Virus record (IMG/VR): IMGVR_UViG_3300028585_000019
Span: 26,975 to 90,974 of that record
Origin: a virus
Length of the DNA stretch: 64,000 bases
Direction: 5' to 3' (one strand)
Below, piece after piece: positions 597-6,956 of the stretch. A model generated the notes under the pieces. It did no database searches, was not told where the DNA came from, and worked only from the letters and a program-made list of their open reading frames with translations. A program made the position numbers and the translations under genes. Positions within the stretch are counted from its first letter, which is position 1. Each line of letters opens with the position of its first letter.

Positions 597-791
597 ATGA
601 AAACTAAAGAAGATATTGAGATTGAAGAAATGATTCGTCTGATTGATATTGAGGCTGATATCTGGCTTTCTGAGAATGAATTGGAGTTTGAGGATATTGA
701 TAATCCAGTTCATCCGTTTCGTTTTGAATACGCTCATGAAGCCCTTACCAGCACTGGTACTACTCGCTTTAAGAAGTGGACTGCTGAATAA
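597..791 (+). CDS. hypothetical protein
   Basis: 64-aa ORF with AAGGA RBS. Confidence 0.6.
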   Translation: MKTKEDIEIEEMIRLIDIEADIWLSENELEFEDIDNPVHPFRFEYAHEALTSTGTTRFKKWTAE

Positions 792-832
792 GGAAAATAA
801 GATGAATGACGAACATGATGATCTTTAAGCTA

Positions 833-862
833 TTGACAATAATAGAGAAACAATGTTAAAAT
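833..862 (+). promoter_or_regulatory. sigma70 promoter with extended -10, upstream of the candidate sRNA
   Basis: TTGACA-18-TAAAAT with TG at 854-855. Confidence 0.65.
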
Positions 863-868
863 GTACGC

Positions 869-1035
869 ATAAGGGAGAAGAAAAGATATGAGTATTCTCC
901 CACGAATTCTAGAGCATTCTTCTCTGTTGATGTATTGATTAACTGCCCTCTCCTCAGTTAGTCAGGTGATGCAGAGAAGGAAGCCGCCCTTCCATGTGTT
1001 GTAGCGTAAGCTCCTGTGGAAAGGGTGTTTTATTT
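869..1035 (+). ncRNA. candidate structured small RNA (~165 nt)
   Basis: Own promoter; stems at 873-901, 917-981 and 986-1026 (the last with a GTAA tetraloop and a T-rich tail); no ORF longer than 16 aa noticed. Confidence 0.55.
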
Positions 1036-1068
1036 GTAGGATAATCTTTTTATTTCTAATTAAATGAC

Positions 1069-1097
1069 TTGACAGCGTACTCTGGCGAGATTATTAT
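1069..1097 (+). promoter_or_regulatory. sigma70-type promoter
   Basis: TTGACA-17-TATTAT. Confidence 0.6.
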
Positions 1098-1131
1098 TAC
1101 CCCTATATTAACATAAATAAGGGGTTTAACT

Positions 1132-1692
1132 TTGAAAGTCGCAAAGAACAATAGAGACGAAAAGATTGCCGTTGTTGAAGGAATTGCTGAGGGTAAGATT
1201 CTTGAAGAGGATGAGCTGATCAGTCTAGTCTTTGATAAAATTAGCAATGATAAAAGGCTTAAAGGTAGTAAAGGAAATTCTCCTTTTGCTGTAGGTACAA
1301 AAGCTTATAAACAAGCTACTGTAGACTCGTATGAAAGGGCACTTGCTTCTGTACTTCTATACTCTTTCAAGCACGGTAAAAGTTCTTCTATAGGCTATCT
1401 CTATTTTATAGAGAGTAATAGTCACAAGGGGTATGTTAAGATTGGTTATTCTCAGGACGTAGAGACAAGATTGAATTCTTATCAGATTTGTTCACCGCAT
1501 AGGGATTTTAGGGTAGTTAAGTATTTAATTCTAAAGCACCCAGCGCAAGCAGAAAAGGTAGCTCTAAATTTACTTTCCAGCAAATCTGTTGGAGGTGAGT
1601 GGATTAAAACAGACGATGCAGAAGACGACTTTAAAACTGTTTGTAAATTTTTAGCTTCTATTGGTATTAAAAATAGATTTGCTTTTACTTAA
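1132..1692 (+). CDS. GIY-YIG superfamily (T5orf172/MUG113-like) endonuclease-like protein
   Basis: GYLYFI...YVKIGYS..VETRLNSYQ...AEK...GEW motif series. Confidence 0.75.
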   Translation: MKVAKNNRDEKIAVVEGIAEGKILEEDELISLVFDKISNDKRLKGSKGNSPFAVGTKAYKQATVDSYERALASVLLYSFKHGKSSSIGYLYFIESNSHKGYVKIGYSQDVETRLNSYQICSPHRDFRVVKYLILKHPAQAEKVALNLLSSKSVGGEWIKTDDAEDDFKTVCKFLASIGIKNRFAFT

Positions 1693-1696
1693 AAGT

Positions 1697-1773
1697 GCTC
1701 CGTTAGCTCAACTGGATAGAGCAGTAGTCCTCTAAACTATAGGTTAGAAGTTCAAATCTTCTACGGAGTTCCA
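1697..1773 (+). tRNA. tRNA-Arg (TCT), atypical C33
   Basis: Cloverleaf GCTCCGT/ACGGAGT; D-arm GCTC/GAGC with A20; anticodon stem GTAGT/ACTAT with loop CC-TCT-AA; T-loop TTCAAAT; encoded CCA. Confidence 0.88.
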
Positions 1774-1779
1774 AACACC

Positions 1780-2158
1780 ACTCAATCGGGACGCTGATTG
1801 TTTAATTCCCTTTAAGGGGCTTGAAGCTGACAGACGTGTTAGTAATTCCTCGTAGACGGGTGTTGAACGGGGCAATGAATTTTACAGCGTAAGACGATGT
1901 GGATACTGGTTGTGTACTAGACCACCCACCTTTGGACGGATAAATGAGTACACTATTTATCGGAAGCGGCCTTAGAGATTAAAGCTTTAAGGACATTGGA
2001 CATGAAGCGATTTGATTCGTTAACTAACAATACCGTGCGACTTCCCTGTAATATGAAACATATCAAGCGCCTTGGAAGCAGAGCTATCTGTACTCCATTG
2101 ATATGTCATAACAATAAATGACAACCAAATATTTGCCCCACCTTGTGTGGGGCTTTTT
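1780..2158 (+). ncRNA. candidate large structured ncRNA (~370 nt) downstream of the tRNA
   Basis: ORF-free; at least 8 hairpins plus nested long-range pairings; repeated GACG loops; ends in an intrinsic terminator. Confidence 0.55.
2135..2158 (+). terminator. rho-independent terminator
   Basis: GCCCCAC-CTTGT-GTGGGGC-TTTTT. Confidence 0.85.
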
Positions 2159-2192
2159 CTTGCCTACAATAATAGAAACTGCCTATTAAAGC

Positions 2193-2222
2193 TTGACAAT
2201 ACATAGATAATCATGTTAATAT
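2193..2222 (+). promoter_or_regulatory. sigma70-type promoter upstream of terS
   Basis: TTGACA-18-TAATAT with TG extension. Confidence 0.55.
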
Positions 2223-2260
2223 TCTTTTATGTCCCGGAACAATAAAGCAGGAATGAAAGA

Positions 2261-2716
2261 ATGAGTGATGAAGATAATGATGTAAGTGAACCTCTCTACA
2301 CAGAGAGCGGTAGGAAGTTACCAAGTACAGCTTGGCCTAAAGGTCATTGTCCTAATAAAAAAGGACGGCCAAAAGCTGGCACAGAGAAGGCTAATGCAAA
2401 GCCTCGCAGTAAGATGCGTAACACTCTTAGTAAGCTTTATGAGCTTGAGCAAGTGGCTGCTGATGTAATTAAAGAGCATCTTGAGAATAAAGACAAAACT
2501 GTCGATCTGGATAAGAGTCGTCTTGATGTTGCTAAGTTTGTTATCAAGGCAATTGAGTCTTACAACAATACATGTCTTCGTGAAGAGATGGCTATCCTCG
2601 GTATTCGCGAGAAGAATGAAAAGAATGCTGATACTCTAGAAGAAAATCAATCTTTGGAAGCAGAAGCTCCTAAGAACTTTAGCATGGACTTGGTAGAAAC
2701 TTCCCTTAAACATTGA
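2261..2716 (+). CDS. probable terminase small subunit (DUF5681-like N-terminus)
   Basis: TAWPKGHCPNKKGRPK motif, helical body, position upstream of terL. Confidence 0.6.
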   Translation: MSDEDNDVSEPLYTESGRKLPSTAWPKGHCPNKKGRPKAGTEKANAKPRSKMRNTLSKLYELEQVAADVIKEHLENKDKTVDLDKSRLDVAKFVIKAIESYNNTCLREEMAILGIREKNEKNADTLEENQSLEAEAPKNFSMDLVETSLKH

Positions 2717-2724
2717 GGCAAGAT

Positions 2725-2937
2725 ATGCAATCAACAATTGAAAGACTTGAGTGGCAAATTGCACAATTAGAAAGCAGGGTAGCTCTTCTTGAGCTTGAGA
2801 TTACAGCTTTGAAGCAAACTGAGATTAATATTGATCCTGTGATGGTAACAACCGAATTTAAATCTGCAACAGAGAAAACCCTTAAAGAGGCATTGAAGCC
2901 CGGTGGTATGCTTTGGAATGCAATTAATAGTCGGTGA
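2725..2937 (+). CDS. small coiled-coil protein whose C-terminus resembles the tape measure protein C-terminus
   Basis: GAGG RBS before ATG at 2725; ends KSATEKTLKEALKPGGMLWNAINSR versus TMP KSECERAISNGLKPGGQIWRQMNGR. Confidence 0.7.
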   Translation: MQSTIERLEWQIAQLESRVALLELEITALKQTEINIDPVMVTTEFKSATEKTLKEALKPGGMLWNAINSR

Positions 2938-2943
2938 AGACTT

Positions 2944-3066
2944 ATGGATAATATCAAAATCGATATCATGTATTCAGACGGGTACTGGAAGTTTAAATGC
3001 TGCAAAACCTCTGTCTGGTCGGATTGGTTTGAAATAAAGAAACAAAAACCCAGAATTTTACATTGA
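2944..3066 (+). CDS. possible 40-aa hypothetical protein
   Basis: MDNIKIDIMYSDGYWKFKCCK...RILH*; fills the gap between neighbours; weak RBS. Confidence 0.35.
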   Translation: MDNIKIDIMYSDGYWKFKCCKTSVWSDWFEIKKQKPRILH

Positions 3067-3075
3067 GGAATAAAT

Positions 3076-3306
3076 ATGGAAAACCAACATAAAATGATTA
3101 AAGGTTATCGTGATCTTTCTCAATCAGAAATTGATGGGATGAACTCAATCAAGTCTCTTGAAGTTGATACTGGAGCCCTGTTTAAACAAATTTCTGAAAT
3201 TGAAGGCGTTGATCCCCGTTCTTTAGCACTAGCTAAAACTAAACTGCAAGAAGGTTTTATGTGGTTCGTCCGTGCTATTGCAAAACCTGCTGACCCATTT
3301 AATTAA
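3076..3306 (+). CDS. acb2: anti-CBASS sponge protein Acb2 (Acb2/Tad1 family)
   Basis: MENQHKMIKGYRDLSQSEIDGMNSIK...RSLALAKTKLQEGFMWFVRAIAKP matches the Acb2 signature as recalled (Y11 and K26 positions conserved). Confidence 0.85.
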   Translation: MENQHKMIKGYRDLSQSEIDGMNSIKSLEVDTGALFKQISEIEGVDPRSLALAKTKLQEGFMWFVRAIAKPADPFN

Positions 3307-4051: not shown

Positions 4052-5452
4052 ATGAATATTAGTATCGGAGATGTATTTTCACGTCTCACAGTTATTGAAA
4101 AAGCCGAGGACAAGACTTCTCCTGGCGGAAGGGTTCGTAAGTACTGGTTGTGTAAATGTTCGTGCGACAGAAATAAAACTCTCGAAGTCCGATCTGATAG
4201 CCTTACAGGTGAACGAGTCAGAAGTTGTGGGTGTCTCAGAGATGAGACGGCTCGTAAGATGCGGACTGGTCAGCCACCAAAAACTGTTAGACCTTTGCCT
4301 AGCCTTGCTGGTAATGTCTATGGTTTGCTTACTGTTGTAAAGCAAGCTGAACCTACTGAAACTCCTAAAGGGAGGAAGATGCCTAGGTGGGAATGCTCCT
4401 GTGAATGTGGAGAGACTGCTATTCTTTATCATGAACGACTTCGTAATAAAGAATACGTTTCTTGTGGGTGTGTCTCTAAAAAATCATATGATGCTGGATT
4501 CAAAAGTGCAACAGAGGGGTTTATTAGTAAAGCTAAAGAAGTTCATGGTGACAAATATGACTACTCTCTCACTTGCTTTGAGAGTTCTCGAAAACATGTA
4601 ACTATTTTGTGTAAGACTCATGGAGAGTTTAAACAAATTTCTGCTAATCATCTAACAGGAAACGGTTGTCCGCGTTGTGGAGTTGAAAGTAGGGCTGATA
4701 CCCTTGAAACTTTTATAGTAAAATCTGAGATTCTACATTCTAATGTGTATGACTACTCTAAAGTGGATTTCATCAGTCCTACAGAACCTGTTACTATTAC
4801 ATGCAAAGTACATGGAGATTTTGAGCAAAGACCTAAGACTCATTTAGGCGGTTTGGGTTGTCCTTTATGTAGCAGAGAGTCCGTTCTTAGTAATAGAGAA
4901 GAAGAATTTATTCGCCGTTCTATAGAGAAACATGGTGATAGGTATGATTACTCAGAAGTTGTCTATGAGGACGTACGTATCCATGTGAAAGTTGGATGTC
5001 CTTCTCACGGCACATTTCTACAAAGGCCTGATATTCACATGTTAGGTAGTAAATGTCCGAAATGTTCTTCTGAGGAGAGGGCTGCAAAACAACATTGGGA
5101 TTATCTGGAACGCTGCAAACTAGATCCTAAGCTTGCAAATTCGCCCGCTGTTCTGTACTTATTAAAACTTAATGACAACTTTGAATGTTTTCTTAAAGTT
5201 GGAATAAGTTCCTCTTTTAAAAGAAGGTTGTCTCACTACAAGGAAGAGGGGTTAGACTTTGAAGTTCTAGAAGTTGTTAATACTACAGCAATTCAGGCCG
5301 CATTGCTTGAAAGGGAAACTCTGAAGTATATTAGAGAATCTAGTATTAGATATATCCCTAACAAAATATTTGCAGGTTGGACAGAGTGTGCAACTCTAGA
5401 AAGTAAAGATCAACTTCTAGAAATTTTTAAGGAGCTTAGTAATAATGTCTGA
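4052..5452 (+). CDS. putative homing endonuclease with multiple Zn-ribbon (DUF723/CapR-like) repeats and a C-terminal GIY-YIG-like domain
   Basis: Two WxCxCxC(G)...SCGC modules; three HGxxYDYS...CxxHGxF...GCPxC repeats; LKVGIS...GWTE C-terminus. Confidence 0.75.
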   Translation: MNISIGDVFSRLTVIEKAEDKTSPGGRVRKYWLCKCSCDRNKTLEVRSDSLTGERVRSCGCLRDETARKMRTGQPPKTVRPLPSLAGNVYGLLTVVKQAEPTETPKGRKMPRWECSCECGETAILYHERLRNKEYVSCGCVSKKSYDAGFKSATEGFISKAKEVHGDKYDYSLTCFESSRKHVTILCKTHGEFKQISANHLTGNGCPRCGVESRADTLETFIVKSEILHSNVYDYSKVDFISPTEPVTITCKVHGDFEQRPKTHLGGLGCPLCSRESVLSNREEEFIRRSIEKHGDRYDYSEVVYEDVRIHVKVGCPSHGTFLQRPDIHMLGSKCPKCSSEERAAKQHWDYLERCKLDPKLANSPAVLYLLKLNDNFECFLKVGISSSFKRRLSHYKEEGLDFEVLEVVNTTAIQAALLERETLKYIRESSIRYIPNKIFAGWTECATLESKDQLLEIFKELSNNV

Positions 5453-6956
5453 AAAGCCGATTGTGGCCCCCCAGTCGGCCTTCCAAAGAGACGTCCTCGT
5501 TAGCGACTCCCGCATTATCGTTGCTGGTGGAGCTGCCGGCTGCGCAAAAAGCACCATCGGAATTATGAGACACTTGAGGTGGATGAATGACCCTCTTTAT
5601 AGAGGGTTTTGCATTCGTAAGAACTCTACTGCTATTATGAAAAGTGGCGGTCTTTTCGATGCTGCTGTTCACCTCTATTCTCAAGTAGATGATATTAAGA
5701 TTAAACTAAAAGATCAGCGCATACAGTTTAGTTCAGGAGCTTCAGTTTCATTCTCCCATTATGAGAATGATAAGGCTGGACAGTTATACCATGGCTTGGA
5801 GTTGAGTAACGTCTTTTATGACGAAGCCTCTCATGCCGCTGAATCTCATATTTGGTGGCTAATCTCCCGTCTTCGTACAAAAGCTAAGATGGATCCCTCG
5901 ATCTGGCTCTCATGTAACCCTGATCCAGACAGCTTTTTGTTTGAGTGGGTCAAATGGTGGCTCTACGACGAAACTAGTCCTAATTACGGCCTCCCTGACC
6001 CAGAAAAGAACGGCAAGGTTCGGTGGATTTTGCGAAGAGATGGCGTAATATTTTGGGGAGATTCTAAAGAAGAGATGATTGTCAAGTACGGCAAACCAAA
6101 TCTTCCACCTGACCACCCTCAGCAAGTCAAACCGCTCAGTTTTCAAGTCATCCTTGGTACAATTTATGATAATCCTTGGTTAATCGAAAATCAACCAGAA
6201 TATCTTGCCTCGCTTGAAGCAATGCCAGACGTAGAGAGGCGTCGCCTCCTTTTAGGAGATTGGACAGCACGCGAGACTGGCAGCACATTCTTTCAGAGAG
6301 AGTGGTGTAAAGAAGAGATTGAGGAGCCACCAGCTTGCGAAATTGTGAGAACAGTTAGAGCTTATGACTTTGCTGGTACTTTGAAGTCAGCTTCAAACCC
6401 TTCGCCAGACTATACAGCATGTGCAAAGCTTAGTAAATTGAAAAATGGAAACTACTTTGTTCATGAAGTGTTGAAAACCCGTATCCTCCCCGGAGACTGG
6501 GAAAAGTTCATACTTGAGAACGCGCTAAGAGATGGTTACGGAACTGAAATCATTGTCCCTTTAGATCCAGGTGCATCAGCCAAATTAGCTACAGGTCTGT
6601 TGACAAGGGCTCTTTCTGAGTGTGGTTATAGAGTTAGAACACTTCGGGCTTCTGGTAGTAAATTAGATCGGTTCCGTCCTTTCTCGTCTCTTGCAATGAA
6701 TGGACACGTCACATTCTTAAAAGGATGTGGTACTGATATAGAGAACAATATCCAATGCGACAACAACTTTGTTTATAAAGAGTTAGAAGCTTTTACAGGC
6801 AAAAGAAAGGCAGGTGAGTCATCTCACGATGATATCCCGGATTGCTGTTCTGATGCAATTTCTACACTAGCTTCTCGCATCAACATCCCAAATATGTCTA
6901 GTGGCTTAACAGCCGTTAACATGCAAAATAAAACACCTTTTGATAAAGCTCGTTGA
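5445..6956 (+). CDS. terL: terminase large subunit
   Basis: PQ adenine motif, GGAAGCAKS Walker A, FYDEA Walker B, CNPD motif, C-terminal RAYDFA and HDDIPD nuclease motifs. Confidence 0.93.
   Translation: MSEKPIVAPQSAFQRDVLVSDSRIIVAGGAAGCAKSTIGIMRHLRWMNDPLYRGFCIRKNSTAIMKSGGLFDAAVHLYSQVDDIKIKLKDQRIQFSSGASVSFSHYENDKAGQLYHGLELSNVFYDEASHAAESHIWWLISRLRTKAKMDPSIWLSCNPDPDSFLFEWVKWWLYDETSPNYGLPDPEKNGKVRWILRRDGVIFWGDSKEEMIVKYGKPNLPPDHPQQVKPLSFQVILGTIYDNPWLIENQPEYLASLEAMPDVERRRLLLGDWTARETGSTFFQREWCKEEIEEPPACEIVRTVRAYDFAGTLKSASNPSPDYTACAKLSKLKNGNYFVHEVLKTRILPGDWEKFILENALRDGYGTEIIVPLDPGASAKLATGLLTRALSECGYRVRTLRASGSKLDRFRPFSSLAMNGHVTFLKGCGTDIENNIQCDNNFVYKELEAFTGKRKAGESSHDDIPDCCSDAISTLASRINIPNMSSGLTAVNMQNKTPFDKAR

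Follow-up and report, generated by a model that had tools for sequence, protein, structure and literature searches.

Small stable RNAs encoded in phage tRNA clusters have been known since T4, and no function has been assigned to any of them. Those of T4, the species 1 and species 2 RNAs (rnaC and rnaD), are 139 and 119 nt long and lie at the end of the tRNA cluster, directly after tRNA-Arg; they are not known to have a function. An RNA that is released during tRNA maturation is 3'ETS-leuZ of E. coli, which comes from a tRNA 3' trailer, is freed by tRNA processing and acts in trans. The T4 RNAs are annotated as small, stable RNAs, and the genes follow the order segB (GIY-YIG), tRNA-Arg, rnaD and rnaC (PMC2330249, Fig. 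1 legend). SegB spreads itself and the neighbouring tRNA genes (PMC2330249). Equally unexplained are GOLLD and ROOL, structured RNAs of phages and prophages that are often found near tRNA islands and whose function is unknown (PMC12286853).

The locus described here has the same order as that of T4: an ORF with a T5orf172 domain is followed by tRNA-Arg and then by a 109-nt element, designated module A. The explanation that we favour, and that we consider probable when taken as a whole, draws on the analogy with T4. The tract at 1774-2158 would be the untranslated 3' portion of a tRNA operon of the phage, made up of three pieces with different histories, and the first of these pieces, module A, would be a small stable RNA excised by tRNA processing, a non-homologous analogue of the T4 species 1 and 2 RNAs.

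Layout of the locus

The window, i.e. the whole stretch of DNA that was analysed, is 64,000 nt long and corresponds to bases 26975-90974 of a 91-kb IMG/VR virus record. The sequencing runs that contain this DNA are leaf-litter metagenomes. On the basis of the large terminase, the closest cultured phage is Pseudomonas phage vB_PsaM_M1 (76% identity), and the next cultured kin are vB_PpS_SYP and phiPMW (66% identity each).

All the features of the locus are on the + strand. Small early ORFs are followed by an ORF-free element (833-1035) and by a predicted sigma-70-like promoter (1069-1097: TTGACA, 17 nt, TATTAT; 11 of 12 positions in a consensus scan), which is likely to be the start of the operon transcript. 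The promoter precedes a 186-aa ORF (1132-1692) carrying a T5orf172/MUG113 domain, which is GIY-YIG-like and of the homing-endonuclease type (Pfam: PF10544, E 1.3e-8; PF13455, E 6.7e-8). Next come tRNA-Arg with anticodon TCT and an encoded CCA (1697-1773, detected by ARAGORN; Rfam tRNA, 61.3 bits), the tract itself, and an intrinsic terminator found by scan (2135-2158), composed of a 7-bp G+C-rich stem (hairpin 2135-2153) and a T run. The tract is ORF-free between the tRNA CCA and the terminator, as a first-pass annotation of the DNA had stated, the longest ORF being 43 aa. The terminator hairpin also closes protein-coding operons in the loci L044 and L045, both of which are without the tract. 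Downstream, the promoter of the next operon (2193-2222, found by scan) is kept in L044, L045 and L046 and is the right-hand boundary of the unit; it is followed by a DUF5681-like ORF (2261-2716).

Several parts of the neighbourhood were compared between relatives. Window positions 988-1769 (promoter, T5orf172-domain ORF and tRNA-Arg) behave together as an indel: on a plant-metagenome contig of 92.6 kb (X6), 118 letters stand in place of the ORF and the tRNA, and L046 has a different ORF and a tRNA-Leu there. This pattern would fit homing-endonuclease-driven shuffling of tRNA genes, as for T4 SegB. The promoter-driven ORF-free element upstream of this cassette (833-1035) is conserved at 86% in L046 and at about 70% in L051 and L047, is partially present in L018, and is probably a second conserved small RNA of these phages. 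A similar C-rich CCCUCUCC-type segment lies just 5' of the tRNA array of phiPMW (L058, about 5620-5720). Elsewhere in the window, the large terminase gene is directly preceded by a 466-aa ORF (4052-5452) that matches DUF723 and contains repeated Cys-rich segments; vB_PsaM_M1 has an annotated homing endonuclease in the same position. Two group I introns were found in the relative L016 (10065-10331 and 20197-20484; Rfam, 66 and 95 bits), one of them inside the large-terminase match.

Homologues of the tract

Rfam searches of the window at gathering thresholds returned the tRNA only. The sole match of the tRNA model (RF00005) was at 1697-1770, and nothing was matched in 1774-2160 at E values up to 10. 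GOLLD (RF01998) and ROOL (RF03087) gave no match in the window, either at the gathering score or at E up to 10. The tract matches neither degenerate tRNAs nor, at gathering thresholds, a known Rfam family, the two identities against which the first-pass annotation had advised checking it. Positions 1690-2260 of the window and 3130-3850 of L051 were compared by blastn ('distant') with 50,697 phage records, and matched the tRNA only or nothing. No match to the tract was obtained with nhmmer and blastn in the loci of 20 TerL relatives, a search of the whole records of two relatives was likewise negative, and module A is absent from the cultured relatives vB_PsaM_M1 and phiPMW.

The first lead to relatives came from public contigs aligned on window positions 700-2800, and metagenome loci fetched via the neighbouring DUF5681-like protein confirmed the contig pattern. 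On the X6 contig, 1770-1853 (84 nt) and 2094-2162 carry two differences each, and the next gene is about 89% identical. Other public contigs match either 1774-1882 (5 differences in 109 nt on contig X4) or 2056-2408. L046 has a tRNA Leu-TAA, and from its CCA onwards 112 nt are conserved at 97%, followed by 82 unrelated letters and by the last ~105 nt at ~93%. L051 has a diverged copy of the first ~110 nt, located after a weak tRNA-like element: its stems differ compensatorily, and the leader, loops and joints are kept.

A covariance model (R1) was built from the pair formed by the window and L046, with a hand-drawn four-hairpin structure. It matched L002/L021 (50.6 bits), L003/L019 (45.9 bits) and L051 (45.3 bits), with E values of 2e-10 to 5e-9. 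The rebuilt model (R2) and two pattern scans of IMG/VR added seven further phage records of ~84-93 kb that carry module A. The 12 members (nine IMG/VR virus records, two metagenome contigs and the window) all score 73-121 bits with the rebuilt model. Bacterial and archaeal genomes were searched by pattern scans and then with the model: the first scan gave 0 matches and the second 13 chance matches, none of which was confirmed by the model. To judge from these sequences, the module A family is so far confined to metagenomic phages of ~90 kb that are related to one another and whose closest cultured kin infect Pseudomonas.

Two other scans yielded candidates that were rejected. An exact 18-mer scan of hairpin 1 in viral contigs gave 14 chance matches, all within an unrelated coding gene, and a leader/TTGTTTAA pattern scan gave two chance matches in coding DNA.

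Structure and covariation of module A

Module A (1774-1882, + strand) is a four-hairpin RNA of a new family, as defined by covariance models, covariation and RNAalifold. The AACAC leader (1774-1782) is followed by hairpin 1 (1783-1800, 7 bp), hairpin 2 (1801-1825, composite), hairpin 3 (1826-1843, 7 bp), hairpin 4 (1848-1872, 6 bp with an inner loop) and a tail of the GCAAUGAAUU type (1873-1882). Each of the hairpins is supported by compensatory changes. Hairpins 1 and 3 are capped by GACG tetraloops (1790-1793 and 1833-1836), each of which is found in 11 of the 12 members; the exceptions are GCCG in L046 for hairpin 1 and a shortened ACG-type loop in L051 for hairpin 3. The joints UYUAAUU and AAAGU and the A/U-rich AAUGAAUU tail are conserved, and hairpin 4 keeps its CUUCC/GGGAG stem and a GUGU-type loop. 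Across the family, the stems drift via compensatory changes and the loops and joints stay fixed.

A complement of 5-6 bp between the leader and the hairpin 4 loop is possible in 12/12 members. The two segments are nearly invariant, and per sequence the complementarity is marginally above that of shuffles (p 0.02-0.39), which is only suggestive of a pseudoknot of 5-6 bp.

Covariation was assessed in an alignment of the 12 sequences (A8). With 85% identity as the cut-off, about five independent lineages can be told apart in it, since seven members resemble one another at 88-99%. In this alignment, which was fitted to the model and thereby favours the structure, 95.3% of the pair cells are standard pairs and double (both-side) changes are found in 19 of the 33 pairs. 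Of the covarying pairs, 5-6 are found in each of helices 1, 3 and 4, and 3 in helix 2. The alignment reaches a covariation score of 0.46, versus 0.147 for shuffles (0/500 reach 0.46) and at most 0.125 with slid partners. RNAalifold recovers the same four helices, with compensatory changes in 18 of 31 pairs, and the single-sequence minimum-energy fold of 1774-1882 consists of the same four hairpins. The fold energy of module A alone is no better than that of shuffles (z -1.65). The invariant G-U pairs (UG in 12/12, GU in 11/12 and UG in 10/12 members) fit the + strand only, and the RNA is therefore that of the + strand, which is the strand of the tRNAs.

For this part of the tract, the first-pass annotation had proposed a structured, possibly new RNA behind the tRNA and, from its many G-U pairs, on the + strand, with hairpins at 1783-1800, 1801-1825 and 1826-1843. 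The hairpins are borne out by the compensatory changes in the 12 sequences, the strand by the invariant G-U pairs, and the covariation that it had asked for is present; the RNA starts flush with the tRNA CCA, has no Rfam match and keeps two GACG tetraloops. It had also drawn attention to five GACG (1790, 1833, 1855, 1893 and 1935). The cluster is real, since five in 150 nt is unique in the 64 kb (0.27 expected), but conservation is limited to the copies at 1790 and 1833; the copy at 1855 reads AACG in L046.

Module A is 97% identical between the window and L046, and its flanks are 80-86% identical. Recent endonuclease-driven gene conversion, rather than selection, could account for this high identity.

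Position among tRNA genes and proposed processing

A same-strand tRNA is found in the fetched DNA at 11 of the 12 module A loci; at the remaining one, L063, the locus is cut by the contig end. The element is within 0-2 nt of a tRNA end in 6/12 copies. It lies directly 3' of a tRNA CCA in the window, L046, L051 and L002 (n=4), ends 2 nt ahead of a tRNA in L002, L062 and L066 (n=3) and, in L002/L021, is placed exactly between tRNA-Tyr and tRNA-Asn. The tRNA ahead of it is Leu(TAA) in L046 and Arg(TCT) in the window. Because the flanks are unrelated between lineages, module A has sharp ends, and it sits in the tRNA arrays like an extra 'gene'. Five or six members have it 190-1000 nt from the nearest tRNA, so that processing by tRNA enzymes cannot set both ends everywhere. 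There is one copy in the genome: no second copy was found elsewhere in it, and a model search with filters off detected no degenerate second copy in the middle segment of the tract.

Two of the arrays have further features. The tRNA array of L002 (1425-1925) has gaps of 90-140 nt, one of which is filled exactly by module A; the other gaps may hold further small RNAs. In L051 (2402-3208), an HNH endonuclease ORF (2607-3122) lies between a tRNA (2402-2473, 42.9 bits) and the weak tRNA-like element (3138-3205, 27.1 bits, just under gathering) that directly precedes module A.

The sequences show the anatomy, conservation, covariation, strand and tRNA adjacency of module A; its processing, stability, protein binding and pseudoknot are what we infer. 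Host tRNA-maturing enzymes would cut it from the precursor: 3' processing of the upstream tRNA would produce its 5' end, and RNase P acting on a downstream tRNA would produce its 3' end. Once excised, it would persist as a small stable RNA, like the species 1 and 2 RNAs of T4. The twin GACG tetraloops and the third conserved loop would most likely serve as a protein recognition surface.

The main rival is that module A acts in cis within the tRNA operon, which we regard as unlikely. It could be a processing or insulation cassette, in which stable hairpins alternate with A/U-rich single strands, RNase E-type sites are exposed and neighbouring tRNAs are prevented from misfolding, or a put-/nut-like signal by which RNA polymerase gets through a transcript that is untranslated and sensitive to Rho. 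A spacer of this kind might well abut tRNAs, be always co-oriented with them within long untranslated stretches and have conserved A/U-rich joints and an A/U-rich tail (UYUAAUU, AAAGU and the AAUGAAUU tail), as module A does, but it would not need two identical tetraloops and a hairpin 4 loop sequence that are as strictly conserved as these. Moreover, most tRNA junctions of these phages are without module A (the spacers are 2-10 nt in L018, L054 and phiPMW), and in the window it comes after the only tRNA and before the terminator, where antitermination has no obvious use.

Distinctly improbable, in our estimate, is that module A, once excised from the operon, is a trans-acting RNA decoy, in which the two identical GACG-capped hairpins and a pseudoknotted third loop would bind and neutralise a dimeric host factor, for instance a defence nuclease directed at tRNAs or an enzyme of RNA processing. 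If such a decoy exists, it would give phage tRNA arrays, whose role in counter-defence is known, an additional layer based on RNA.

Middle segment and 3' end of the tract

Excision as a small stable RNA is proposed for module A, the first of the three pieces. The 173 nt that follow it (1883-2055, + strand) are non-conserved and, with a z of -1.75, do not fold better than shuffles; they are filler or a strain-specific RNA. No relative gave a blastn or nhmmer match to this segment, which is replaced by 82 other letters in L046 and by 140 on the X6 contig.

The 3' piece (2056-2134, + strand) consists of a pair of hairpins (2060-2104 and 2105-2122, the second with an AACAAUAA loop) and an A/U-rich spacer. 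None but the nearest relatives have this piece: it is conserved at ~93% in L046, where it has two 1-nt indels, and is also present on the X3 and X6 contigs. When the terminator is included (2056-2160), the fold z is -4.15. A scan found no promoter for the 3' piece, and a TAATAT at 2049-2054 is lost in L046. The hairpin pair and the shared terminator would provide the transcript with an sRNA-like, nuclease-resistant 3' end.

A small ORF (2002-2121, 39 aa, with AAGGA 9 nt upstream and the only one with an RBS) was considered and rejected as not conserved: in L046, the two 1-nt indels break its frame, its 5' half is non-homologous and no ORF is present there. The stop-free frames of the tract had no match in PHROGs (best E 0.47).

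ORF-free blocks of ~150 nt, common to relatives, are found downstream of tRNAs in L051 (3440-3600), L047 (1265-1420) and L059 (6200-6300). As they match nothing in Rfam, they are candidates for further RNA modules. Since other ORF-free blocks follow module A in the relatives, the tRNA regions of these phages are, as far as can be read from their sequences, mosaics of non-coding modules, tRNAs and homing-endonuclease genes.

The first-pass annotation had treated these pieces as one multi-domain RNA of ~370 nt. A single multi-domain ncRNA covering all 385 nt of the tract, with long-range pairings to hold it together and with GACG and Crc/Hfq A-rich loops that would make it a sponge, now appears highly unlikely. 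In every relative the middle 173 nt are absent or replaced, whereas module A and the 3' piece are retained. A conserved and covarying unit is formed by the first 109 nt only, and it recurs by itself: it is flanked by tRNAs in L002 and immediately precedes a tRNA in L062 and L066. The tract is indeed one ORF-free transcript segment between the tRNA and the terminator, and the minimum-energy fold of its middle closes with UACAG/CUGUA, but the two long-range pairings that had been proposed, TTACAG/CTGTAA and CAATG/CATTG, are both lost in L046, which has other letters in the middle and CTTTG in place of CATTG. The hairpins suggested at 1939-1961 and 1970-1992 belong to the single-sequence fold of this segment without homologue (z -1.75). 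A better fate met the hairpin at 2104-2123, which (with one at 2078-2093) is in the minimum-energy fold and is kept in L046.

The fold z-score of the whole tract, which the first-pass annotation had suggested as a check, is -2.72 on the + strand versus -0.84 on the - strand, as a single structured RNA might give; however, it is mostly contributed by the terminator end (z -4.15), and the z-scores of the three segments (-1.65, -1.75 and -4.15) mean that thermodynamics alone says little. The iterated-loop sponge relied on the local enrichment of GACG, and three of the five copies are not conserved. The titration of a host protein or toxin, which the first-pass annotation had suggested, is conjecture. 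As for the Crc/Hfq motif, AANAANAA occurs 127 times in the window versus 101 expected (on average once in about 500 nt when both strands are counted), and its single copy in the tract (2110-2117) is at chance level. With one AANAANAA motif instead of several exposed ones, the tract does not qualify as a CrcZ-like Crc/Hfq sponge.

Scarcely credible, and plausible for 1883-2055 only, is a functionless remnant of a lost gene or of a decayed array of pseudo-tRNAs: the relatives carry up to 9 tRNAs here in arrays of highly variable content, and the middle 173 nt are unconserved and unstructured, but the tRNA model is silent in 1774-2160 even at E up to 10, PHROGs offer no match, the only ORF with an RBS is broken in L046, and covariation refutes such decay for 1774-1882, where four hairpins without a cloverleaf have undergone compensatory evolution in five lineages.

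Relation to described RNAs

The 3' piece resembles, in its layout, the Hfq sRNAs of the PinT/isrJ/RyhB type (RF01404, RF01393, RF00057): positions 2083-2156 comprise a hairpin, an A/U-rich spacer, a G+C-rich terminator and a U tail. At E up to 10, Rfam returned weak PinT/isrJ/RyhB-like matches for the last 75 nt with 19.5-21.4 bits, versus gathering scores of 37-60; the PinT model, whose gathering score is 60, reaches 21.4 bits in the window and 31.1 in L046. We read this likeness as a generic architecture and not as homology.

Module A, which in the explanation that we favour would be a small stable RNA excised by tRNA processing, differs from the RNAs that come closest to it in location or origin. 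GOLLD and ROOL are RNAs of 580-800+ nt with many pseudoknots that form multimeric cages, whereas module A is 109 nt long. 3'ETS-leuZ, which sponges sRNAs, is short, largely unstructured and part of a host operon; module A, unlike it, is phage-specific and highly structured, and is found upstream of tRNAs too.

The patchy, mosaic distribution of module A next to homing-endonuclease genes shows how the shuffling of tRNA genes takes non-coding units along with it. If module A binds a host factor, it would connect phage tRNA arrays with an RNA-mediated interference in the RNA metabolism or defence of the host.

With the T4 species 1 and 2 RNAs, module A has no similarity of sequence or structure: in the tRNA region of T4, the best match of model R2 with filters off reached 7.9 bits (E 0.48) and was not located on rnaC or rnaD. 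The species 1 RNA has a tRNA-like 3' domain, and module A is without one. To the small stable RNAs of phage tRNA clusters, module A adds a compact and well-defined member, with a length of 109 nt, clear ends, strong covariation and invariant twin tetraloops; its compactness, its clear ends and the twin tetraloops make it an easy object for probing, pull-down and deletion.
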